A stretch of 41,368 nt of DNA from a virus (IMGVR_UViG_2671180984_000033), one strand, 5' to 3'. Shown: positions 1 to 13,251, counted from the stretch's first letter. Notes: a model not told the origin generated them from the letters alone. A program made the numbers and translations.

Positions 1-270
<270 letters not shown>

Positions 271-475
271 TTACCGTTAAATCATTTTAAAATCAGTAAG
301 TTGTATCGAGTTTGTATGCTTTACTGTCATTAACTTACTGTATGTTGATCCAGTGTATTTAACCTTGATAAACTCAGTCCAGCAACACAAAACCGCAACA
401 CATTGCATTTTGTCCCGTAGAAAAGACTTGTATGTGTGAGCTTGTTTTCTGCGCCTACGCAGATAAGGATTGAGA

Positions 476-1873
476 ATGCCGCGCACTGTAACACATAATC
501 CGGATAGCCCCAATAATGACGATGTTTTAGCCGCATCTGAAAAATGGGACGCCTGTAAACCCCCCTATACCAGCGCACACATGAAAATCTGTGTTGCTGC
601 CGCCAAAATCATCCTCGCTGCTTCCGGCGTGGCTCGCCGTTCCAAATACGAAAAAGAGAACTATCTCCGTATCGATTTCAGCAAAGCCGGTAAGGTTACA
701 TTTTACGCCGAGTTTCCAAAAAAGATGGGCCTCAAGGGTAAAAAGCTCGGCGAGTGGCCGGAGCTCGCTATCCAGCTGGCGCGCGAAAAAGCACTAGGTA
801 TGGCTGACGGTGGACTGCGGGCAGAGTCCGTACATGCAGCGCTGGAAATGTACCGGGATGACCTCAAAGCCAAAGTAGCCCGTCAGAAGCTGAGCCCGGA
901 CAGTTTCACAACCTACGGGGTGCGTATCGACCGGATTAAATCAACGTTCGGCGAGCGCGAGGTGTTCAGCGACGTAACATACAGTCGGCTGGTGGAAGTG
1001 CTGGACGAGTGGATCGCCACTCGCTCGAACAATAACGCCCTGGAGTTGTTTGCCGAGCTCCGTCGGTTCTGGAAGTTCTGCGCACCTACTCTTTGCAACG
1101 GCCGCAATGTTGCCGCCAGTCTGCCAGATGATTATGTTTCCTCCCGCGTACAGAAACCTACCCCCACACGGCTTTTTACCGATATTGAATCAATCGCCCG
1201 ACTCTGGCTCAATGTTGCTGCCTGCACCTCTGTACACCAGAAGAATGCTGTTCGCTTCATGATCATCACTGGTGTTCGTCCGATTAATGTCCATAACCTG
1301 CGCTGGGACTACGTTCACGAGGAGGCTGGTGAAATTGTTTATCCGGAAGGGGTTATCGGCATGCGAGGGGCTATGAAAACACAAAAGGCTTTCCGCCTGC
1401 CGATAACGCCTGAGATCCGGCGGATTATCGACGAGCAGAAAGCCTGGCGTGATTCAGTTCCTGAGTGCAACAGGGATTATGTATTTTTGCAGCCACGTGA
1501 TCCAATGCAGCCATTTTCAAAACGATCACTGGATAAGCTGGTGAAAACATACAGCCCGGACGGGGCTGTAAAAGGAATAAAACATGATGGGACTGTTAAA
1601 GGGAAAGACGGTGCATTTAATACGATGTGCCGTAAATTCCTTAAGAGCAATGTTATTGCCTTGATGAAGGAAAGAGGCTATTCCCGCTCAGACCGAAGGG
1701 AAATCAGCCTCCTTTGCCTTCACCACTCCAGCAAGTCAGATGACCCGATGGCAGAACATTACGACTTTTCTGATGAGATTTTACAGGAAGAGATTGCGTT
1801 GAAGCGCGAAGCTTTCGAGGCTCACGAGCGGAGCATACTTGCGCAGGTGGCATTGCTACGGCGGCGAGGTTAA
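476..1873 (+). CDS. Tyrosine-type phage integrase
   Basis: ORF track 470..1873 begins at TTG; the ATG at 476 has an AAGGA Shine-Dalgarno about 6 nt upstream. C-terminal HH...Y region and its position at the prophage end fit an integrase. Confidence 0.8.
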   Translation: MPRTVTHNPDSPNNDDVLAASEKWDACKPPYTSAHMKICVAAAKIILAASGVARRSKYEKENYLRIDFSKAGKVTFYAEFPKKMGLKGKKLGEWPELAIQLAREKALGMADGGLRAESVHAALEMYRDDLKAKVARQKLSPDSFTTYGVRIDRIKSTFGEREVFSDVTYSRLVEVLDEWIATRSNNNALELFAELRRFWKFCAPTLCNGRNVAASLPDDYVSSRVQKPTPTRLFTDIESIARLWLNVAACTSVHQKNAVRFMIITGVRPINVHNLRWDYVHEEAGEIVYPEGVIGMRGAMKTQKAFRLPITPEIRRIIDEQKAWRDSVPECNRDYVFLQPRDPMQPFSKRSLDKLVKTYSPDGAVKGIKHDGTVKGKDGAFNTMCRKFLKSNVIALMKERGYSRSDRREISLLCLHHSSKSDDPMAEHYDFSDEILQEEIALKREAFEAHERSILAQVALLRRRG

Positions 1874-2070
1874 TACTGGCTGCGACATTTTTGAATAAAA
1901 GCGTCGACATTTCGGCGCTCATAACGAACTACTTTTGCACTGAAACGAATTGGTGCCAGGATAGCCCGATGACGATGCTTAATATTCCACTCACATAGCG
2001 TTTTCTGTGTAATACCTAACTTTTGGCATACTTCATCCGGGGTGAGTAAATCGTCGGGTTTCTCGCTCAT
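1870..2070 (-). CDS. AlpA-like helix-turn-helix protein (putative excisionase or regulator)
   Basis: 66-aa ORF, LTPDEVCQKLGITQKTLCEW resembles AlpA/Xis-type HTH; last gene of the leftward operon, next to int. Confidence 0.6.
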   Translation of the reverse strand: MSEKPDDLLTPDEVCQKLGITQKTLCEWNIKHRHRAILAPIRFSAKVVRYERRNVDAFIQKCRSQY

Positions 2071-3458
2071 GCTATACCTCTCTTTTTCATGGCATCGAGC
2101 AGGATGTCCTGCACTGTTCGTTTTGAGTTGCGCCGCTCCATCACCATTTCGTCCATAGTGTCGGCAGCAATAATGTGGTGAATAAATACCGGACGATTGT
2201 GTCCGGCCTGTATCTGTCTGGTTGGGCCGATACGTTCAATAATTTGCTGATATTGCTCCAGGTCCCACCAGTGTGAGAAAAATACCAGTATATTTCCGCC
2301 GTCCTGCATGTTCAGACCGTGGCCCGCGCTGGCTGGGTGTGCAAAGAGAACAGGAATCTTTCCGGAATTCCAGTCACGTAGTGTCTGTGGATCCTGGTCG
2401 AGGTGACGACCGCGAGGAAATGCTTTAAGCAAGCGTTCAAGATCGTGTTTCCAGTGATAAGCAACCAGCACAGGTGCGCCAGCTGCTTCGGTCAGTATGC
2501 TGTCCAGCGCCTGTAGTTTGGTGTCATGCAGTTCTGACCAACTTCCGGTGTCATCTGTGTATACTGCGCCGCTGGCGATTTGCAGACACTTCAGTGTCTT
2601 TGCCGCGGCGTTCGGTGCTTCGATGCCTTCGCCATTCAGCTCGAGGTACATTTCCTTTTCCATTTCACGATACTGCTGACGGGCCTTCGGCGGCATATCC
2701 ACGCGGATTACGTTATGGATGGGGTCTTTGATATCGAACCAGTCGGCCGCATCCAGCGAGAGGGTCACATCGGCTAACGCTCGCTGTATTTCACCCTGTG
2801 AGTGAGCAAAAGGCTCCAGTTTGGTCCAGCTCTGCCCCGGAAACTGTATCGATTTGAACCAGCGTGAGGTAAACGCGCCGTAAGTGCGCCCGAGACGTTG
2901 CCCCTGGTCCACAAACCACGATTGTCCCCACAAATCTACCAGGCCGTTCGGTGCTGGCGTACCGGTGAGATTTATCCAGCGCCGGACATACTTGTGCGCC
3001 ACTTTGCCCAGCGCCGCCGCGCGCTTACCACCACCTCGCAGCCGGAAGGATTTTAGCCGGGTGCTTTCATCTGGAATGACAGTACCGAACGGCCATCGTT
3101 CTCCCAATTCTTCAACCAGCCAGACAAGGTTATCGTAGTTGATTGTGAACACGCTCGCGTTGCTGTTCGCCAGCGCTGTAGAGCGCGCTTTGGCGTTACC
3201 GATGATCGGCTGTACCTCAATATTACGCAGATGCCCCCATTTAACAGCTTCATCAGGCCAAGTGCTTGCTGCAACGCGTAGCGGCGCGAGGACCAGCGCG
3301 GGGCGTGTTTCTGCTCCAGCCATGAAAAGATCTTCCAGCGTGGTGAGTGTCGCTACGGTTTTACCCATCCCCATCCCTGCCCAGATGTTGCCGCGCAGGG
3401 GCTCGATTTGATGATTGATGATGAGATCTTGGTAGGGACGTGGTTTAAAAGTTATCAT
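2067..3458 (-). CDS. SNF2/DEAD-like ATP-dependent helicase
   Basis: N-terminal PRPYQ motif and Walker A GMGMGKT; 463 aa. Confidence 0.7.
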   Translation of the reverse strand: MITFKPRPYQDLIINHQIEPLRGNIWAGMGMGKTVATLTTLEDLFMAGAETRPALVLAPLRVAASTWPDEAVKWGHLRNIEVQPIIGNAKARSTALANSNASVFTINYDNLVWLVEELGERWPFGTVIPDESTRLKSFRLRGGGKRAAALGKVAHKYVRRWINLTGTPAPNGLVDLWGQSWFVDQGQRLGRTYGAFTSRWFKSIQFPGQSWTKLEPFAHSQGEIQRALADVTLSLDAADWFDIKDPIHNVIRVDMPPKARQQYREMEKEMYLELNGEGIEAPNAAAKTLKCLQIASGAVYTDDTGSWSELHDTKLQALDSILTEAAGAPVLVAYHWKHDLERLLKAFPRGRHLDQDPQTLRDWNSGKIPVLFAHPASAGHGLNMQDGGNILVFFSHWWDLEQYQQIIERIGPTRQIQAGHNRPVFIHHIIAADTMDEMVMERRNSKRTVQDILLDAMKKRGIA

Positions 3459-3481
3459 GAAGAAAATCCCTGATTAGAAAG

Positions 3482-4084
3482 GTGCTCTTGAACATCATGA
3501 ATGTAAAAGATTTATCAATTACAACGGTTCTCTTGGCCGCCCTTTATTTTATGGCTTTTTCTTTTTACAAAGGGTACAGCTCATTTTATGGATTCCCTGT
3601 AAGTTTTATTTCTATTGGGATTGAGGAAATAGTTAAATTTTCTGTTATTGCATTAGGACTTTTGTGCACCTTAGTCGCTTTGCTGCATATTGATACTGAA
3701 GAGAAGAATATTCCATGGTGGGTGTATTTATTTTTCTTCATTTTGGCCTCTTTGCTTTCATACTGGACAATGTATTTATATGGCGGTAGCTCATACCTTT
3801 ATGAAAAATCCATAAGGGATGTGGCTACCCAAGCAATACTGTTGGGATTTATTAGCCCTATCAGTGTCAGGGCAGTATCTGTTTTTATTAGGAATGAATT
3901 TAGAATAAAAAACAAAACTCATGGGGTTATGCTTTTTATATCTATAGCAATGCTTCCTTCAGTCCTTGGGTGGGCATGGGCATACTTATCAGATGAGCCT
4001 CTTTTTTATTCTAAAAAATATGATGCTTATATTATCGAAAGCTATAACGGAAAATTTGTCTTGGGGAACTGTAAAAAAAAATAG
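3482..4084 (+). CDS. Multi-pass membrane protein of unknown function (accessory gene)
   Basis: About 200 aa with several hydrophobic segments; visibly AT-rich island on the opposite strand to its neighbours. The likely ATG start is at 3497 (track start 3482 is GTG). Confidence 0.5.
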   Translation: MLLNIMNVKDLSITTVLLAALYFMAFSFYKGYSSFYGFPVSFISIGIEEIVKFSVIALGLLCTLVALLHIDTEEKNIPWWVYLFFFILASLLSYWTMYLYGGSSYLYEKSIRDVATQAILLGFISPISVRAVSVFIRNEFRIKNKTHGVMLFISIAMLPSVLGWAWAYLSDEPLFYSKKYDAYIIESYNGKFVLGNCKKK

Positions 4085-4213
4085 CTCTGAATTTATGAGT
4101 GTCGAAGGAATTGAGGGGAAATTAATTCCTGTAAGCATAAAAGAAACACAACAACTAAAAGTATGTTTTTTAAAAGCTTCTAAGCTCAAGAAAAATCGCT
4201 CAGAATGATTGTC

Positions 4214-4510
4214 TCACAATATCCCCTCTAAATTTTTGCTATCCAGTACTACCACGGTAAAGCCTAGCTTTCGCAGACGTTCATGCTCGCGCAACTGGTC
4301 AGGCCGTGGTGGCTTGCCGGGAGATTTACATTCAACGAAAACGAGACGGCCGCCGGGTAGCAGAACAATGCGATCTGGTACCGAGCGGCGACCAGGTGAT
4401 ATGAACTTAAAGGCGACCCCACCAGCCTTTTTCACTTCGGCGACGAGATGCTTCTCGATTAGGTTTTCACGTTCATAGGACATCTGAATCCCACTCTTCA
4501 AAAAGCACAT
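4214..4510 (-). CDS. VRR-NUC domain nuclease
   Basis: 98-aa ORF with the D...E.K-type core (VVLDSKN, FVECKSPGK) typical of phage VRR-NUC proteins. Confidence 0.65.
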   Translation of the reverse strand: MCFLKSGIQMSYERENLIEKHLVAEVKKAGGVAFKFISPGRRSVPDRIVLLPGGRLVFVECKSPGKPPRPDQLREHERLRKLGFTVVVLDSKNLEGIL

Positions 4511-4772
4511 TCAATTCCAGTTTCTCTGCCAACGCGTTTTCTGCACGTGCGCCGGCAGAGTACTCCCACTCTTTGAGCATATAAATCGTATCGGCACAGC
4601 GAAGCATTGCGAGGCAGATGTCCATGTACTGAGCCTGTGTCAAACTATTGGGTAAAGTTGCGGGGTTAAGCACAACATATCCCTTGTCCGTTAGCCTCTT
4701 TGCTGCGGAATGAAAGGCCGGGCGGTTAAATTGCTCGTAACCGCTCATTGGCCCGGCAACGTAAACGATCAT
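4473..4772 (-). CDS. DUF4406 / nucleoside 2-deoxyribosyltransferase-like protein
   Basis: 99 aa, N-terminal MIVYVAGPMSG motif as recalled for this family; overlaps neighbours in an operon. Confidence 0.45.
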   Translation of the reverse strand: MIVYVAGPMSGYEQFNRPAFHSAAKRLTDKGYVVLNPATLPNSLTQAQYMDICLAMLRCADTIYMLKEWEYSAGARAENALAEKLELNVLFEEWDSDVL

Positions 4773-4984
4773 TCTTCGACCGCCTTACGCTTTTCACGCA
4801 TATTCTGCATCAGGCAAAAATCAGATCTGCGTTCACTCCATTCCTGATTCAGTTCGTGATGTGATTCGCGGTTGGCTTTTGCCCAGACCTCCGCTGCCCG
4901 GTCATATTCGCCGGATTGTTCAAGTCGCAAAGCTTCCCTTGCAGCCCTGTAATAAAGTGGATTGTCCCGGTATTTAAATGACAT
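4769..4984 (-). CDS. Hypothetical small phage protein
   Basis: 71-aa ORF tightly packed between the polymerase and DUF4406-like genes. Confidence 0.4.
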   Translation of the reverse strand: MSFKYRDNPLYYRAAREALRLEQSGEYDRAAEVWAKANRESHHELNQEWSERRSDFCLMQNMREKRKAVEE

Positions 4985-4989
4985 AGGAG

Positions 4990-7053
4990 TTAATCCTTAC
5001 GGTAGTGGTACGCCTCAAAACCGCCAGCGTTCAGTGGGATATCGGGCGCCCATTCGGGGTTAGTGGAGAGAAGTGCGGAAAGCGCTTTATCGTTGAAATC
5101 TTCTGTGTCAGGTGCTTCGGTGATCACCTCGTCGTGTACCGTCAGCACAATGCTGTAACCGGCATCTTCGATAAGCGGCATGTTTCCGGCCAGAATGTCG
5201 CGGGCGGCCGCCTGGGTGATGTTCTCCACCAGCTTTCCGCCGTAGGTTTTGAGTCGTTGCCATTTACGCGAATAAGAGTTAACCCCCATGTAGGTGATAT
5301 TCCCTTTTTCGATAACCGGAGACGGGTAGCATACAGCGCGTCCGGATGGTAGCTGTATGCGCAGCCACGCGCCATCGCGGCGGATTTTAAGATAACCGCA
5401 ATACAATGTTTTTTGCGGTGTGGCGATTGCAGTGCGGACGGTGCGCTCCAGTTCGTACCAGAAATCACAGGTCGCGGGATGCGCCCGGCGCCAGAGACGT
5501 TTAAGTGAGTCGCAGGCGATAAATACCCGTTCAGAAAGCCCGTAGGTTGACTTGCGTTTAACCGATTCGTCGTACCAGCTTTTCGCCTCGCGGATAACAT
5601 CGCGGGGAATGTTTGGTAGTGCGGCGTTCGCCAGCTCGTCGAGATCGAGACCGTAAACCAGTGCAAAAGTGATGAAGGCCGACACACCACCACCATAACC
5701 CAGACCGAGTTCCATGACTTTACCGATCTGACGCATGTGTTTATCAACATCATCTGGTGCAATATCGAAAGCTTTTGCATACGCCAGTTTATATAAGTCC
5801 GGACCCGTTCCGGCGTCGTACTCTCTGAATGCATTCAGTTTCCATTCTTCTCCTGCCAGCCATGCCAGCATACGGCCTTCAATGTTCGACAAGTCACTTA
5901 CCACCAGTTTTTTGCCTGTTGGCGCGATAATGCAGCCACGTAACGCTGAACTGGTTAGTTCCATGATATTGTCAAACAGCAGGTCTGCACATCCGGCTTT
6001 CAGTGCTTCGATGCCTTCGTCTATTTGTTCCTGTTTTAGTGAAGGGCGGGGAAGATTCTGGGGCTGGAATAGCCGTCCGGCCCAACGACCGGTACGTGAC
6101 GCCCCGCAGAACTGTAGCGTACCGCGTAAGCGCCCGTCGTGGCTTACGCCTTTCATCAGTGCCTTGTATTTACTGGTGCTGGTAGTACTGGCCTGCAGTC
6201 GGATAGCCAGCAGTTCTTTCACGGCAGATGGTAAATCGGGGTCGGCAATACGACGTTCCAGAGTACTGCGTTGCATGTCTGGTAGCTCCACACCGTAGGA
6301 TTCAACAATGTGCTTAATCAACGCGTCTCGTTGTGTGGCTGCCTGCACTTCGCCATCAGTCATTTCCTGTGTACGCTTTGCCAGGCGCTTTTGCTCCTGG
6401 TCTACCGCTTCGATCGCAGCGCGCGCGAGTTGCATGTCCATGCAGACGCCCCGGTCGTTGATCTGCTGATCACGATGCCAGAGCGCCAGCTCTGTCCCCT
6501 GATAATTCCACTTCGGCAGACGTTTATAGACTTCGCGCATTGCCTCGATATCCAGTCCGGCGTAAGCAACAAAGCGCCGCCATTCTTCCGGGTGGGTTTT
6601 GCTGGTGGCACGGCGCAGTTTGCTGTTTTTCGGGCGGGGCTTACAGAACAGCTGGATCAGCGCTTTACCTTCTTTGTCCTTCGCTTTGTCTTGCGGGACG
6701 CCGAGTATTTCGCAGAGTTCCCCCAGAGACCCCGGGAGACCGTGCGCCAGCGCCTGCACCATTGTGTCGCGCCAACGTTCGACTGGCGGTGCCAGGCGCG
6801 GCATTGCATAACGCAGGACGGTGCGGTCGAAGTGAGAGTTATGAAAATAAAGCAGGGTTTCAGGGTCTGCGATTGCTTCGTATAAGCCGTGTGGAATACC
6901 ACCACCGGCAGTGATATCCCACACGTTTACTGGCCCGTCGTTGATAGCCCATGCGAAAAGCATCACTTCAACGCCTTCGGCATACGCATGGGTACCGTTC
7001 GTAATAGGGATTTCGCAATAGGTTTCCAGGTCGCCCCATAGTATATTGGACAT
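4990..7053 (-). CDS. Family A DNA polymerase (phage polA-like)
   Basis: 687 aa; contains LTVHDEV (motif C-like) and an N-terminal exonuclease-like region. Confidence 0.8.
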
Positions 7054-7114
7054 AAAATATCCTCATATGGTATATGGTTAAATGCTAGATATCATGAATT
7101 AAAGGAGACAACTA

Positions 7115-7804
7115 ATGACTGTGGGTAATAAGAGACAGCCTAATGGATTACCTGAATATTATTGTCACCGTGGTAACGACATAAAAGATGCGATAGTTCG
7201 GGATTTTATTATTCAGCCTGTTGCACACCTGAAACTTATTACTGGACAAACTAAAACCAGTTATTCCGGTTATCCGTTAACCGATCAGTACTATTGTTTT
7301 TCATTTAAAAAACGCTCTGATGAAAATTGTACAGGGGCTTTTTTCTGTGGTAGAGATGTTGCAAAGGATTTCATTCGGCGTATCGGTTGTACAGAGCTGC
7401 CGTTATTTAATCCTATGAAATCGGATACCAGTGCAGCAATAGAACGTTCCGGTTCTGGCTCAGGTAGTTCTGGTATTACTGTCAAGCCAAATGCTGACAA
7501 AAAGCTATTTATAGACGCAGCTCGTCTGTTAATGACGCTGTGGGATTCAACAAGTAAGGGACAAACCCCACTGGCGTCGGTTCTTAATGAAGCAATTTCT
7601 GGTGGTATAGATAAACCTCCAGAAATTAGACATGTAGTGGCGGTTAATACAATGTTGGGTAACACAAAAAATACTTTAACTGGTTTGCTGGATAAAGCAA
7701 GAGCGAAGTATCCTGATGTGTTATTCAGAGATTTTGATTTCACGCCTCTTAACGAGATTGTAAAACGTTCAAAATCATATAATAAGCATCCCCCTTGTTA
7801 TTGA
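7115..7804 (+). CDS. Two-domain Cys-rich protein of unknown function (accessory gene)
   Basis: 229 aa; AAGGAG Shine-Dalgarno 8 nt before the ATG; N-terminal domain with CH...C...C...C, a SGSGSGSSG linker, then a C-terminal domain; opposite strand to the replication operon. Confidence 0.5.
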   Translation: MTVGNKRQPNGLPEYYCHRGNDIKDAIVRDFIIQPVAHLKLITGQTKTSYSGYPLTDQYYCFSFKKRSDENCTGAFFCGRDVAKDFIRRIGCTELPLFNPMKSDTSAAIERSGSGSGSSGITVKPNADKKLFIDAARLLMTLWDSTSKGQTPLASVLNEAISGGIDKPPEIRHVVAVNTMLGNTKNTLTGLLDKARAKYPDVLFRDFDFTPLNEIVKRSKSYNKHPPCY

Positions 7805-8469
7805 GTATCAGACACTGTATTGGTAGGAAGGCCTATCATTTCATTTAATGTCTCTCGATGTACTGCTGGTGCTAAAGGGACTGGCGGTGCGTCTGTTGGA
7901 AGCAGTTCTTTAGCTTCGGGCCATACATCCAGTAATTGTTTTACTGTCCGAACTTTATTTAGAGCCGCGCTGACGTTCTGTATGATTTCGGTTTCATCAC
8001 TTTTAATTTGTGTGTAGAGAGCATCAAAGCTATAAAACTCCGTTACCAGAGGATCTTCGCCAAGTAGAGTAAATTCTGCAGGTGTTATTTTATTAATATG
8101 CTCGGGGGCTCCTGATTCATAACCTCTGTAGTTGCCATTGAAATAAATGTTTGCTCTGGCTCCAGCCAGATTGAGATATATGCAGCAATCTTTTCGAATT
8201 AAAGAACTATTGTTTTTTAATGCTTCGGGGACTTTTGATACCAGTGTTTCTATTTTTTTTATATTTTTTAATATTTCAGCTTCTTTCTCTACGCCCCCGA
8301 TAGCTGCAAGCCGAACACGTTCGGCCCATTCAACACGAGCAGCTCGTAGTGCTGATTTACGTTTGGGGATACCCGCTTTCTCAAGTGCGTTATTGATGAT
8401 TTGAGTTTTAAGGTGATTAGTTAATACGGGCTGTGACATTATTCTTTCCCTCATGAGATACCCCAGCAC
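7798..8469 (-). CDS. Hypothetical phage protein
   Basis: ORF in the leftward operon; track start is GTG, and an internal ATG (MSQPV..., near 8439) has a better AGGGAAAG Shine-Dalgarno. Confidence 0.5.
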   Translation of the reverse strand: MLGYLMRERIMSQPVLTNHLKTQIINNALEKAGIPKRKSALRAARVEWAERVRLAAIGGVEKEAEILKNIKKIETLVSKVPEALKNNSSLIRKDCCIYLNLAGARANIYFNGNYRGYESGAPEHINKITPAEFTLLGEDPLVTEFYSFDALYTQIKSDETEIIQNVSAALNKVRTVKQLLDVWPEAKELLPTDAPPVPLAPAVHRETLNEMIGLPTNTVSDTQ

Positions 8470-8490
8470 GTAGCTGGGGGATGAATATTT

Positions 8491-9039
8491 TTAAATCAGT
8501 GCTTCAGCATCAGCACCTTCGCTGATATCGTCGAAATCGTCAGCGCTTGCCACTCCGCCGCCAGCGAATGCATCGCCGTCTCGCAGGAACTGGACTCCGC
8601 CGAGTGAGGCATTAATGCGTTTACCGAAATTATTGTCCTGTGCCCAGATATCGATAACGGCGTTTACATAGCACCCTGCATAGGGACGTCCATCAGCCTG
8701 AATTAGTGGCGAACGATCGCGATCAAGAACAGCTGGGCGCGCTTTGTTAGCAGCGTTCAGGAAGAAATTGCCGGGAAAGCCTTCATACTCTGCTTTTTCA
8801 TCACCATCATGCAGGCACAGATTGAGTTTTTTCTCCAGCTGGTTATAAATGGACTCCCACTTCTCCCCCCATTTTTCCTTCGCTACCTGCTTCATAGCTT
8901 TACGGATTTCTTCCAGTTGTGGGTGTTTGGGAGACATTAAAAATACTGCGGAGAAACGCGGATCGCCTTCGCCGTTTACAGTTTTAGCTTCAAACAGAGA
9001 CGGGAAGGCCAGACGAACATTGTTCAGCTTCAGTTTCAT
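8491..9039 (-). CDS. DUF2815-like phage single-strand DNA-binding protein
   Basis: 182 aa with an acidic C-terminal tail (DDFDDISEGADAEALI); sits beside a DUF2800-like gene as in known phage replication modules. Confidence 0.55.
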   Translation of the reverse strand: MKLKLNNVRLAFPSLFEAKTVNGEGDPRFSAVFLMSPKHPQLEEIRKAMKQVAKEKWGEKWESIYNQLEKKLNLCLHDGDEKAEYEGFPGNFFLNAANKARPAVLDRDRSPLIQADGRPYAGCYVNAVIDIWAQDNNFGKRINASLGGVQFLRDGDAFAGGGVASADDFDDISEGADAEALI

Positions 9040-9054
9040 GGGGATTTCCTTAAA

Positions 9055-10356
9055 TCAGATGAGGTCTGCGGTTAGCGTATCGTCGGATACGTCGTCGAAA
9101 TCATTTACAGGGTTGATATTGAGTGCGGGGCGTGGGTCTGACTCGGGAACGACGGTGGGTTTACCATCAGCTCGTGTTATCAGTGCCTCGACTTTTGACC
9201 AACGGCGCGGACTGGCCTTTTTGATAAGTTTTTCGGCTTTTGTGGGACTAATAAGTTTAAAGTCGAATACTTCTTCAGTTTTGTACCTGAACTGGTCCTT
9301 CAGAAGGGCGCGAGCTGCCTCTTCGTCACTCCAGGCCCGGTTACCTTGTTTTTCTGTTACCAGTTTAAACCCCGGTACCGGATGTCCGGCATTGAGTTCA
9401 TTGTGAACCCGGTCCCGTACTGCCTTTAGCCAGGATTCAATAAAGTCGGCCTGGCTATAGATCTCTGCAAGCTGCTCAATGGTTAACAGAGGTACACGTG
9501 CGCTGGCATTGGTGATTATTTCGCTGACAGGCTTTGTCAGATCTTCAAAATCGCTGGCCGCTGTTTGTAAATGCTGCATTTTCTGGGCAGTGCAAATAGC
9601 TTTTGCTTTACAGAAGCGGCACTGTTTTTCTCCAGGTATGAAGTTTTCCAGAGGTAGTGTCTCAATGACTTCGCATTCAGCAATATTGAGAACAAGGATC
9701 GCACTGGTTGCGGCCTTCTGTGCCCGTTCACCGAAAGACTGAAGTTCCTGTACGGTTAACGACCATTCTGAAACGTGGTTGAGCCTTGGCTGGTGAATAA
9801 ATAATCTTACAGTCTCAAAGTCATACAGCATGCTGAATTGTTCGAGCGCACCCAGAGCATACAGTTGTAGTTGCTCATTTTGTTCTGCATCAATGCGGAC
9901 ACCTTTGCCATATTTCAGGTCGTGGATTTGTAATTCGCTACCAGCAATGATTATTCCGTCGGCAGTTCCGAAAGATTCTTCCACACCCGTTATATGTGAG
10001 AAATCAACACGTTGTTCAACCAATAGTTCATTATTCTGTGCAAGAGTCCAGACCGTATCAACATACCGGCCAACGGCTTCGACCATTTCATCATCCACCT
10101 GTGGGCCAGATGTATCATCAGGATTTTCGCGAAGGGGGTATGAGCCGAGAAACATAGAAACATTGCATCCGGCGTAGTGTTCCGGGTGGCTTTGCCTGTT
10201 TCGTAGAACTTTTTCAGCAAGCGCGTGCGCTGCAGTGCCCTCGATTGCAAAAGTTGTTTCTTTATCCGGTTGTGTGGCCTCCAGCGCCAGACTTCCTGGG
10301 CAGCGCATCCATCGATGCGCTGATGATGGAGAAAGTTGTGCATGAACGTCTGGCAT
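9055..10356 (-). CDS. DUF2800-like PD-(D/E)XK nuclease (Cas4-like fold)
   Basis: 433 aa; N-terminal [15 protein letters not shown] signature; cysteine cluster near the C-terminus. Confidence 0.6.
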
Positions 10357-10358
10357 GA

Positions 10359-11261
10359 TTAACCCTCCAGTGCTTTTTCAGCCAGGGTGATTACTTCAGC
10401 GAGATTTTCATCCGTTACTTCACCAAGTTTCCTGGCTCCCTGTTTTTCCAGAATTGCAATAGCTTCTGCCCGGTAACCCCCTTTTGCTAACTGGAGGATC
10501 AACCCTTCAGCTTGTTTGCGTAGTGCCGCGAAATCAATTGTATGGTCATCTTTGGCGTCATTATTCTGGCTGGAATTTGCTGCGTCTCTGCGTGCAAATT
10601 CTTCCTGCAGCTGAAGGTACTCAACACGGTTGATCTCGATATGGCCTTTTTTCAGCATCTCGTTCAACTTGCGTAAGGTGTGGAGTTCACTGGCTGCTGT
10701 GCCGGATACATTTTTGACGTAAAACGGCCCCGTGCGTTCTCCATCCTTGTTACTGGCCTTTTTCGGCTTAACTTCATCACGCCCATCCGCAGGTGCATCA
10801 AGTAGCTGCTCGGCAAAAGCACGTCGCTCGCCGATGGTTGGCAGGTCGTCCCAGAACTTAAGGATGTTACGGGACAGGTCCAGGAGAGCAGGTTTAAGCA
10901 GCGCCCTGGCTCGTTTGACGCCCTGCAATGCGCTGTCGAGAGCATCAATCTGAACAACTCGTTTATCGCCTTCAGCATCACGGTAGGCAACAGCACGTTG
11001 CAGCATGTCTTCTGTGATAGGGGTGGCTACCGGGTAGAAACCAGCCAGTGCGATAACGTCGCTGAACTCCAGATCATCCAGTGTCATTGCCGCTGACATA
11101 TTTTCAGTTTCAGTTGCTGTATCCCGACATTCCTGCACTCGTGAAATCGTGTCAGGATGCATAACAATGCCTGATGCCATTGTGCGGATAAGACGTTCAA
11201 GCAGCGCATTATGTTGTGCCAGAAGTTGATTATTAAGTTCTAGACTGGTTTCTAAACTCAT
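10359..11261 (-). CDS. Hypothetical phage early protein
   Basis: 300-aa ORF in the leftward operon, acidic and helix-rich. Confidence 0.45.
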
Positions 11262-11440
11262 ACTGTGGTCCTCGCTACAAGGAGAATGAAAGTGATGATC
11301 AGACCGAGCGCAGTGGCAACGGCCAGACCGGTCATCAAATCGAAGTTTTTACGGCGATAACGGAGAACATCGCGCCCCGTCAGTCGATGGATGTGTTCAG
11401 GTTTCATCGGTTGTATTCCTTTTTTCATATCGGGGAGCAC
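11258..11440 (-). CDS. Small membrane protein (first gene of the leftward early operon)
   Basis: 60 aa, Arg-rich N-terminal half and one C-terminal hydrophobic helix (LAVATALGLIITFILLV); 4-nt overlap with the next gene. Confidence 0.4.
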   Translation of the reverse strand: MLPDMKKGIQPMKPEHIHRLTGRDVLRYRRKNFDLMTGLAVATALGLIITFILLVARTTV

Positions 11441-11465
11441 GCTGTTGCGAGTGCGCTTTCAGACA

Positions 11466-11492
11466 TAAAAAAGCCCGTCACGTGAGGCGGGC
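11466..11492 (-). terminator. Intrinsic terminator-like hairpin on the minus strand, upstream of the leftward operon
   Basis: Minus-strand GCCCGCC-TCACGTGA-CGGGC followed by TTTTTT. Confidence 0.45.
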
Positions 11493-11631
11493 AAAGACTA
11501 CACACAGCAATTACATGGATATCATCGAGTGCCTGCTTTTAACCACATCAGGCGAGGTGGTTCTCCTTGTACCCCTACAGTGAGAAATCGTCTAATATCT
11601 CTTCACCCCTACAGTTTGAGAGAGATTAGAT

Positions 11632-12201
11632 ATGTCTGAAGAAAAAGGAATTCTTTCCCGGATAACTGAATCGTTATCCGGCGTGGGAGGAGCAATTAAA
11701 AGCGCGGTTGGAGCAGCAAGAGAGATTCAGAATCTGACTGTCGACTATGCAGTTAAAGAGAAGACGCACATCTTACTCGATAAGCTAATGGATGTTCAGA
11801 TGCAGCAAATGTCGCTTCAGGAGCTGCTGATTGCGGCTAAGGAGAAAATTGTTGAACTGGAAAATGAGAAAGTAAAGCAAGAGAACTGGGCCGCTGAAGC
11901 GGCGAGCTATGAACTTTACCAGCCTATGCGGGGTACTCTGGTCTATCGCAGCAAGCTTTCTGCAGATGCTGACCAATCTCCGGTTTATATTTGTCCCAAT
12001 TGCTACGAGCAAAAGAGAAAATCTATATTGCAAGCGGAAGGTCTGGTTACTAAGCCAGGCCTTGGGCGAGCCGTTAATATGGTTTGTTCGTACTGTAGGG
12101 CTTCCTATCTGTTCAACCGAAATGCTTTAGAAGCCCGACTGCCTTCTGAAGATGAAAATCCGGGGAAGGCAATCACGGATTACGATCCTTACAACCAGTA
12201 A
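11632..12201 (+). CDS. Coiled-coil / zinc-ribbon protein of unknown function (accessory gene)
   Basis: 189 aa; ICPNCY...VCSYCRAS pair of CxxC motifs; convergent with the repressor. Confidence 0.5.
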   Translation: MSEEKGILSRITESLSGVGGAIKSAVGAAREIQNLTVDYAVKEKTHILLDKLMDVQMQQMSLQELLIAAKEKIVELENEKVKQENWAAEAASYELYQPMRGTLVYRSKLSADADQSPVYICPNCYEQKRKSILQAEGLVTKPGLGRAVNMVCSYCRASYLFNRNALEARLPSEDENPGKAITDYDPYNQ

Positions 12202-12576: not shown

Positions 12577-13251
12577 TTAGTACATGCGTAGCGCGGATTT
12601 GGCGATCCCCGCCACGTAATGGATTTTTTCAATGTTTTCGCGTGGTACTCTGACTGGTGGATGATCTTCATTTACAGACATTAGATGGAACAGGCCATCG
12701 CGTTCGAACAAGAAGGTTTTAACCATGACCTCACCGTCCCGGGTAACCACAAGTACTTCATCACCAGGAGTGTAGTCGTGGTTGGGTTCGACGATTACGA
12801 ACTCACCCTCTTTGATTCTAGGCATCATTGAATCACCAACACATTTCAGGGCGTATGCATCTTCATCCTTTGTCGGCCAGTATATGAAACCATCACTGCT
12901 ACCTACTGAATATTGGGTGTCGCTCCAAAGTCCTCCAACGCCTAGCTGAGTGTTTCCCAAAACAGGTACTTTATTAAACCTAAGAGAAATATACGTTTTT
13001 ATACCTGTCGCGTCCTCTTTCTCCATTTCTTGAAGGCTCCTTTCTGCCAGGTCTATTGGTGACACGTGGAAGTAGTCGGCGATCTGCTTTAACGTTGCGT
13101 ATTTCGGATCTTTCACCTCTCCTGATACCAGCCTGTGTAGCGTTGGTTGGTTCAGTTGTAACCGACGTGCCAGCTCAGTTATCGAGCTTATCTTGGCTTT
13201 GTCCATCAGGTACTTGATGTTTTGAGAAAGGATATCGGTAGTATCAATCAT
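12577..13251 (-). CDS. cI-type repressor (HTH plus S24 LexA-like peptidase domain)
   Basis: N-terminal HTH (ITELARRLQLNQPTLHRLVSG) and C-terminal GDSM serine-protease motif; divergent from a cro-like gene. Confidence 0.85.
   Translation of the reverse strand: MIDTTDILSQNIKYLMDKAKISSITELARRLQLNQPTLHRLVSGEVKDPKYATLKQIADYFHVSPIDLAERSLQEMEKEDATGIKTYISLRFNKVPVLGNTQLGVGGLWSDTQYSVGSSDGFIYWPTKDEDAYALKCVGDSMMPRIKEGEFVIVEPNHDYTPGDEVLVVTRDGEVMVKTFLFERDGLFHLMSVNEDHPPVRVPRENIEKIHYVAGIAKSALRMY

Follow-up and report, generated by a model that had tools for sequence, protein, structure and literature searches.

An AT-rich membrane-protein cassette at an exchangeable cargo site in the replication operon of an Escherichia coli prophage

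SieB of phage P22 acts by abortive infection from the cytoplasmic side, and HK97 gp15 and T4 Imm are proteins of about 60-85 amino acids with one or two transmembrane helices. T4 Imm and HK97 gp15 are cited as small inner-membrane blockers of DNA injection (PMC11436027, PMC3594210). SieA of P22 is an inner-membrane superinfection-exclusion protein of 162-164 amino acids; three transmembrane helices are predicted for it, and its FxRYPxEAxxFNK motif is cytoplasmic (PMC10883804). Furthermore, the presence of exchangeable defence genes at fixed prophage positions is a known pattern, as described for BstA (PMC8585504). Here, we have analyzed an AT-rich cassette with a gene encoding a multi-pass membrane protein, located between a helicase gene and a VRR-NUC nuclease gene in a stretch of 41,368 bp (IMGVR_UViG_2671180984_000033; this whole stretch is called the window, and positions are counted from its first nucleotide). 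Sequence comparisons firmly identify the cassette as laterally exchangeable cargo, a "moron", in a hotspot which repeatedly carries anti-phage genes, and it is equally firm that the cassette encodes a real, selected, fold-orphan protein of the inner membrane. The cargo family itself is uncharacterised; its kind, prophage accessory or defence cargo, is already well known.

The cargo protein resembles P22 SieA in being prophage-encoded, stand-alone, small, multi-pass, located in the inner membrane and accessory, and the action proposed for it, a block of DNA delivery at the inner membrane, may also be the same. It differs by its intact length of 236 amino acids, five transmembrane helices, a predicted periplasmic domain with a cysteine pair and other motifs. 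Allelic types diverge strongly in both cases: identity between SieA types is below 30%, and alleles of the membrane protein at one locus share 51-79% identity. A comparison with SieA by hhalign gave a probability of 0.7%, no PHROG match linked the two proteins, and both motif and helix count differ from SieA types A-C, for which three or four transmembrane helices and a C-terminal position of the motif are characteristic; the protein was thus not assigned to the SieA family. With P22 SieB and the lambda Rex type it has in common an antisense position in the leftward early operon (as on the P22 map), putative start signals of its own, membrane association and accessory status. However, the conserved surface of the cargo protein probably faces the periplasm, hhalign against P22 SieB gave a probability of 0.2%, and PHROGs and PADLOC, the libraries through which alone RexB was covered, returned no match. 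HK97 gp15 and T4 Imm are likewise accessory or moron-type inner-membrane proteins, and the cargo protein may be comparable to them in blocking genome entry and thereby protecting the lysogen or infected cell; they are, however, much smaller and show no PHROG-level similarity to it. BstA occupies exactly the same slot, also on the opposite strand, in a sister prophage of strain DEC5E, in keeping with the pattern mentioned above, but it is a soluble DNA-binding abortive-infection protein without sequence relationship to the membrane protein.

An exchangeable AT-rich cassette in the VRR-NUC/helicase slot

The cassette, its parts and its two flanking genes are located as follows.

3450-4214: AT-rich exchangeable cassette of about 765 bp, flanked by the start codon of the helicase gene and the stop codon of the VRR-NUC gene
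3497-4084, plus strand: truncated membrane-protein open reading frame (ORF) of 195 amino acids with ATG start at 3497, from the ORF list and the PGAP coding sequence WP_001101050.1
3482-4084, plus strand: the same ORF from an alternative upstream GTG start at 3482, 200 amino acids
4073-4081, plus strand: poly-A run of nine A (A9), a +1 frameshift site with eight A (A8) in intact alleles, from alignments with strains 2013C-4465 and MLI108K3
4083-4208, plus strand: the last 41 codons as an out-of-frame remnant (SSEFMSVEGIEGKLIPVSIKETQQLKVCFLKASKLKKNRSE*) with K221 and C223, from translations and family alignments
2067-3458, minus strand: SNF2-family helicase, left flank of the hotspot (Pfam SNF2-rel_dom, 1.4e-11; PGAP annotation)
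4214-4510, minus strand: VRR-NUC nuclease, right flank of the hotspot (phrog_93 endonuclease, 1.4e-31; Pfam VRR_NUC, 4.6e-4; PGAP annotation)

A preliminary description of this locus had proposed that a stretch of about 750 bp with a GC content much lower than that of its surroundings holds one plus-strand gene between the minus-strand helicase and VRR-NUC genes. Computation of the base composition confirmed the contrast and excluded a uniform composition: the GC content is 0.343 for positions 3459-4213 as compared to 0.540 for the helicase gene and 0.531 for positions 4214-7053. Among all 755-bp stretches of the window, which have a mean GC content of 0.494 with a standard deviation of 0.041, positions 3459-4213 form the minimum, and only 0.18% of the stretches are as low. 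The individual codon positions deviate as well. The GC content at third codon positions (GC3) of the membrane-protein gene is 0.33 as compared to 0.51 +/- 0.06 for 19 other prophage genes, corresponding to a z value of about -3.0, and at first codon positions (GC1) it is 0.36 as compared to about 0.59. Since GC3 and GC1 are both depressed, the low GC content does not result solely from the hydrophobic amino acids encoded. Homologous cassettes in other hosts have a GC content of 33-39% between flanks of 52-58%, and the junction gaps of related prophages are mostly lower in GC than their flanks. Rfam and repeat scans of positions 3200-4600 and 3300-4400 revealed nothing meaningful, and no flanking repeats resembling insertion sequence (IS) or att elements were found. 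The single plus-strand gene was located where it had been placed, as an ORF extending from 3482 or 3497 to 4084.

The gene had also been regarded as laterally acquired cargo, and a comparison with related prophages had been proposed to look for cargo swapping at this junction. Both points were borne out by the distribution of the cassette. The helicase gene was found in 159 of 5,426 complete E. coli genomes, 22 of these 159 carry the cassette, and the membrane-protein gene is absent from all 36 species-representative relatives. When the window was aligned with the sister prophage of E. coli O55:H7 DEC5E, homology ended at 3449 and resumed at 4215; the corresponding gap in DEC5E (locus L004, 2058-4003) is filled by an opposite-strand gene encoding 309 amino acids and a gene for a Dcm-type cytosine methylase. 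We compared the window and related prophages at a total of 34 loci; the hosts are E. coli, further Enterobacterales and a small number of more distant bacteria. The distance between VRR-NUC and helicase genes ranged from 1 to 3154 bp, with the two genes abutting in the most distant relatives, and the junction of related prophages held unrelated genes or none. The cargo found in the slot of relatives includes the following proteins.

BstA, opposite strand: DEC5E (PADLOC, E 2.5e-110)
TIR-like proteins of 285-310 amino acids: phage 611R5 and Providencia (PADLOC TIR effector model, E 1e-6 and 2e-5)
TIR-like protein: Enterobacter (by sequence resemblance only)
SspD-like protein: locus L027 (E 7e-16)
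C5 cytosine methylases: locus L023 (Pfam) and DEC5E (PGAP annotation)
Bro-N antirepressor-type proteins: several loci (Pfam for L016, the others by sequence resemblance)
dCMP deaminase and SprT-like protein: single loci (Pfam)
MazG-like proteins: loci L020 and L031 (assigned by eye)
DUF6338 membrane protein, opposite strand: Morganella (L018) and Trabulsiella (L030) (Pfam, E 1e-30)

The TIR-like protein in the helicase/VRR-NUC slot of phage vB_EcoM-611R5 has 305 amino acids (L051, 1458-2375), and the same phage encodes a PDC-S35/TIR protein (E 1e-108; L051, 3105-3866) between VRR-NUC and the DNA polymerase PolA. The DUF6338 cargo consists of N-terminal transmembrane helices and a soluble C-terminal part; it is analogous, but unrelated, to the membrane protein of the window.

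Close homologues of the membrane protein with 50-94% identity occupy the same junction in prophages from Salmonella, from the thrips symbiont BFo2, from unidentified sequencing-run contigs and from IMG/VR viral contigs; additionally, decayed remnants were detected in Enterobacter and in one unidentified contig. Cargo alleles at this junction share 51-79% identity as compared to 95% for the flanking helicase. For loci L060-L063, identity amounted to 95% for the helicase, 91% for VRR-NUC and 91% for PolA, but to only 51% for the membrane protein. This decoupling of cargo divergence from the flanks resembles that of exclusion or immunity genes. One distant homologue was located in the nin-like, post-replication region of a lambdoid prophage of Serratia. 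The gene that directly follows it (L049, 9741-10664) is TIR-like, and its product is 72% identical over 181 amino acids to the N-terminal part of the 305-amino-acid protein from the 611R5 junction. Another distant homologue was found on an accessory island, together with a toxin-antitoxin pair of the YafO type. All contexts identified belonged to prophages, to decayed prophages or to the accessory island of L056. A conserved partner gene was not found around the distant homologues, the TIR-like neighbour being present in the one Serratia prophage only.

The membrane protein and its frameshifted allele

About 20 clusters make up the very small family of the membrane protein, and every member with a named source organism comes from Enterobacterales. 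A word-indexed search of 5.8 billion protein clusters retrieved 17 proteins, and an exhaustive HMMER search of 1.84 billion representatives retrieved 10, including relatives at 25-29% identity; a profile search for further family members yielded nothing beyond these results. All intact members have a length of 229-251 amino acids. Residues invariant throughout the extended family are Y17, F23, F30, G32, P34 and I38 (motif FYGFPxxFI) as well as W159, C192, K221 and C223; they include aromatic residues, glycine, proline, tryptophan, lysine and two cysteines, and none is of catalytic type. Pairwise ratios of nonsynonymous to synonymous substitution rates (dN/dS) among seven intact homologues were 0.06-0.3, in the membrane part and the C-terminal domain alike, so that purifying selection acts on the full-length gene.

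When Pfam, NCBIfam, PHROGs and PADLOC were searched with the window allele, with the intact protein and with 13 family members, the one significant family was phrog_35408, a PHROG of unknown function, which was matched end to end only by the distant members P0021, P0025 and P0026 at E values of about 1e-4. The window protein itself remained below significance with phrog_35408. Judged by these matches, phrog_35408 probably represents the same superfamily in sequenced phages. In PADLOC-DB 2.0, the window allele had no match at E <= 0.1, and proteins P0001, P0024 and P0021 had none at E <= 0.01. The PDB, searched by sequence with the family profile, contained no match, and neither did 50,697 phage genomes searched by tblastn with P0001, P0024 and P0021. 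A literature search with the protein accessions and on the related induced phages identified no papers.

An AlphaFold2 model of the intact protein, built from an alignment of 13 sequences, reached a mean pLDDT of 81 and a pTM of 0.80. It contains helices at residues 8-31, 42-63, 74-96, 106-132 and 140-164, which coincide with the hydropathy peaks, and a C-terminal domain of about 70 amino acids composed of a four- to five-stranded beta domain (170-211) and a helix (214-235). Averaged across the family, the number of lysine and arginine residues is 1.8 for the N-terminus, 1.2 for loop 2 and 3.1 for loop 4 as compared to 0.1 and 0.6 for loops 1 and 3. According to the positive-inside rule, this distribution places the N-terminus probably in the cytoplasm and the C-terminal domain probably in the periplasm. 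C192 and C223 are the only invariant cysteines of the family, and a disulfide between them probably staples the predicted periplasmic domain. Loop 1 is the most conserved segment and the region of transmembrane helices (TM) TM3-TM4 the most variable; the conserved features thus cluster on what would be the periplasmic face. In the preliminary description the product consisted mostly of hydrophobic helices. The multi-pass character agrees with the five transmembrane helices spanning residues 8-164, but about 30% of the full-length protein forms a soluble domain.

The ATG codon at 3497 is the start used by PGAP and by all homologues (MNVKDLS). The ORF of 195 amino acids covers the five transmembrane helices and, of the C-terminal domain, the first 30 residues. 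In strain 2013C-4465, which has A8, the ORF runs on to a TGA codon matching window positions 4206-4208 and encodes 236 amino acids; the stop of this intact ORF lies 5 nt from the VRR-NUC stop codon. The window allele ends with ...GNCKKK*, and 41 conserved C-terminal residues are lost, including the invariant K221 and C223. A product of about 200 amino acids, as described before, is therefore present in the form of the ORF of 195 or 200 amino acids, but it represents a frameshifted allele of a protein of 236 amino acids. Because the slippage from A8 to A9 removes the last 41 residues, the window copy is probably inactive or strongly attenuated.

Strain MLI108K3 differs from the window haplotype only in having A8, and its annotation gives an intact protein of 236 amino acids. 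Of 22 complete E. coli genomes carrying the cassette, 10 have the intact A8 allele; 11 have A9 in a segment identical to the window, and one, O111:H11 strain 8D, combines A9 with a single substitution outside the run. The A8 allele (for example WP_001101051/52) is present in strains such as MLI108K3, 2013C-4465 and O55:H7 CB9615. At least three haplotypes carry A9, namely the O26/O111 type, M-17 and A34. The long A run is confined to the E. coli allele, with five or six A at this site in other species.

Further, independent frameshifts were observed in this gene family. E. coli A34 (L002, 3096-3808) has, besides A9, one A more (A7 instead of A6) at the site that corresponds to window position 3906, and the family member P0017 is broken after FYSKK by another frameshift in an A run. 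AT-rich cassettes of this family appear to be generally prone to homopolymer indels, or to homopolymer assembly errors. For practical work it should be noted that the gene copy in O26:H11 97-3250 is frameshifted and that the intact allele is A8.

Prophage context and expression signals

The window is identical (100%) to the chromosome of E. coli O26:H11 strain 97-3250, where the prophage adjoins yfhL. The prophage is of a temperate myovirus type, with the cassette lying antisense to the replication operon. Besides the genes given above, the following features were assigned.

1-261, minus strand: yfhL, at the window start and next to the prophage
470-1873, plus strand: tyrosine integrase
1870-2070, minus strand: helix-turn-helix (HTH)/Xis-like gene
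4473-4772, minus strand: DUF4406 protein, like nucleoside 2-deoxyribosyltransferase (phrog_355, 9e-44)
4769-4984, minus strand: small PerC/ANR-like protein of 71 amino acids in the replication operon (PGAP: ANR-family regulator; sub-threshold PerC match, E 4.6e-4)
4990-7053, minus strand: family-A DNA polymerase (PolA)
7050-8470: second AT-rich stretch, GC content 0.35-0.43
7115-7804, plus strand: orphan gene of 229 amino acids, GC3 0.28, on the opposite strand at the PolA/Nmad5 junction
7798-8469, minus strand: Nmad5 gene, AT-rich with GC3 0.29 (6e-56)
After Nmad5 in map order: DUF2815 and DUF2800
12577-13251, minus strand: CI-type repressor
Listed after the CI-type repressor: primase-polymerase
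Structural genes of myovirus type: portal, sheath-like protein, tape measure and baseplate J

Over 62% of window positions 470-12000, the window is matched at about 97% identity by the induced phages vB_EcoM-611R5, -606R2 and -689R2, whose aligned parts all lie within positions 2067-12000. These matches indicate that the prophage lineage represents a functional temperate phage. The VRR-NUC ORF encodes 98 amino acids from a start at 4510 and 89 amino acids from the PGAP start at 4483 (4214-4483); the shorter form is favoured since most homologues align from residue 8-10 onwards. The DUF4406 and Nmad5 genes suggest that this phage lineage may modify its own nucleotides or DNA.

The junction of PolA and Nmad5 looks like a second cargo slot, because relatives L002, L004, L007, L050 and L051 differ in the small plus-strand genes located there. 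The orphan gene at 7115-7804 had no Pfam, PHROG or NCBIfam match, and a PADLOC match to IetA at E 0.03 was non-significant. In pathogenic E. coli, regulators of the PerC/Pch and ANR types influence the expression of virulence genes; the host strain of the ANR/PerC-like gene at 4769-4984 is an O26:H11 Shiga toxin-producing E. coli (STEC).

The membrane-protein gene and the helicase gene lie head to head on either side of a 38-nt spacer; with VRR-NUC the membrane-protein gene forms a tail-to-tail pair. Two putative start signals were assigned to it.

3478-3484, plus strand: Shine-Dalgarno-like AAAGGTG, conserved ahead of the ATG in the spacers of L003, L007, L009, L010 and L050
3429-3458, plus strand: weak sigma-70-like candidate promoter TTGGTA-18-TATCAT from a consensus scan, inside the first helicase codons

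The cargo gene may be expressed in the lysogen. The cassette has no terminator, its intact ORF stopping 5 nt short of the VRR-NUC stop. Since the helicase gene lies beyond the cassette, the replication operon must be read antisense through it.

Possible functions of the intact protein

By analogy to the known exclusion proteins, superinfection exclusion at the periplasmic face of the inner membrane is tentatively regarded as the most likely function of the intact protein. The protein would be produced from the prophage and reside in the inner membrane of the lysogen. Its conserved periplasmic face, formed by the FYGFPxxFI motif of loop 1, by the periplasmic end of TM5 and by the C-terminal domain, would then interfere with delivery of an incoming phage genome across the inner membrane, in the manner of P22 SieA, T4 Imm or HK97 gp15. 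This assignment is favoured because the gene stands alone, because the conserved surface has this particular location, because cargo such as BstA is found in the same hotspot and because allele divergence outruns that of the flanks. The preliminary description had named superinfection exclusion or abortive infection as frequent roles of membrane proteins at such sites, which is plausible here given the BstA, TIR-like and SspD-like proteins in the same slot. Several results weigh against exclusion. The hotspot also holds non-defence cargo of antirepressor, deaminase and MazG-like type, which makes the argument from location weak, and a promoter and terminator scan yielded matches no more numerous than in shuffled sequence. 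Furthermore, about half of the E. coli alleles are frameshifted, which suggests relaxed selection or a cost.

The protein could also act after entry of the phage, as an abortive-infection membrane effector like lambda RexB or P22 SieB which senses infection, depolarises or permeabilises the inner membrane and kills the cell without blocking DNA entry. A multi-pass protein at a slot which holds BstA in the sister prophage and TIR-like effectors elsewhere would fit this function, P22 sieB likewise lies antisense within the early operon, and the distant family member in Serratia directly precedes a TIR-like gene. However, infection is usually sensed in the cytoplasm, whereas the conserved features of the cargo protein probably lie on the periplasmic side; a conserved partner gene is lacking, PADLOC gave no match to transmembrane effectors, and the hhalign probability for SieB was as low as stated above. 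An abortive effector is considered unlikely. A role unrelated to phage, as a lysogenic-conversion or host-fitness factor, is doubtful as well. In this case the protein might be an orphan immunity protein against a membrane-targeting bacteriocin or a contact-dependent toxin, or a modulator of an envelope process; homology offers no functional clue, a multi-pass protein with a presumably periplasm-facing domain is compatible with it, and non-defence cargo does occur in the slot. Against it stand the absence of a toxin or partner gene nearby in any context, the lack of invariant residues of catalytic type and the finding that all contexts are prophages, decayed prophages or the accessory island of L056. 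Among more specific functions, modification of O-antigen or lipopolysaccharide (LPS) was rejected since no Gtr or acyltransferase domains were present, and a holin or lysis function was rejected since genomic position and strand are wrong.

A different question is whether the A9 allele is dead at all. The A8/A9 run could be a slippage switch which tunes expression by DNA phase variation or by transcriptional slippage, the latter yielding some full-length protein again. Slippage of the bacterial RNA polymerase at runs of nine A can restore ORFs that have been disrupted (PMC1088944). The run of the window allele has exactly this classic length, the long run is specific to the E. coli allele, A9 is shared by at least three haplotypes, and MLI108K3 carries an A8 sibling of the window haplotype. 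On the other hand, A-run indels arise by chance in AT-rich genes, A34 carries a second indel and P0017 is broken elsewhere, and some of the indels could be homopolymer assembly errors; such a switch is regarded as quite unlikely. Combining it with exclusion, the intact protein would found a new single-gene family of inner-membrane phage-exclusion proteins, with five transmembrane helices, a disulfide-stapled periplasmic domain and no detectable kinship to SieA, Imm or gp15, in which the A8/A9 run would switch exclusion on and off by DNA phase variation or transcriptional slippage in enterohaemorrhagic E. coli (EHEC) O26/O111 and other lineages; this combination is judged very unlikely. Finally, the gene might be a core, replication-linked component of the operon, as its position between replication genes could indicate, and likewise its retention at this junction by prophages from Escherichia, Salmonella, a Pantoea-like symbiont and further sources. 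Comparative data refute such a core function, because the gene is absent from most relatives: it is missing from 86% of the E. coli prophages with the helicase and from all 36 species-representative relatives, and the inducible phages 611R5, 606R2 and 689R2 are without it as well. In addition, it lies on the opposite strand, its slot is empty or filled by unrelated genes in relatives, and about half of its E. coli carriers have a frameshifted copy; a core role is extremely improbable.

Superinfection exclusion remains the tentative assignment. If the intact protein blocks phage entry, it would constitute a structurally new family among the few inner-membrane superinfection-exclusion proteins, and its conserved periplasmic face would hint at the step of genome delivery which is targeted. 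The junction of VRR-NUC and SNF2 helicase in this widespread Enterobacterales prophage lineage is a defined hotspot, and other orphan cargo located there can be mined for candidate defence genes.
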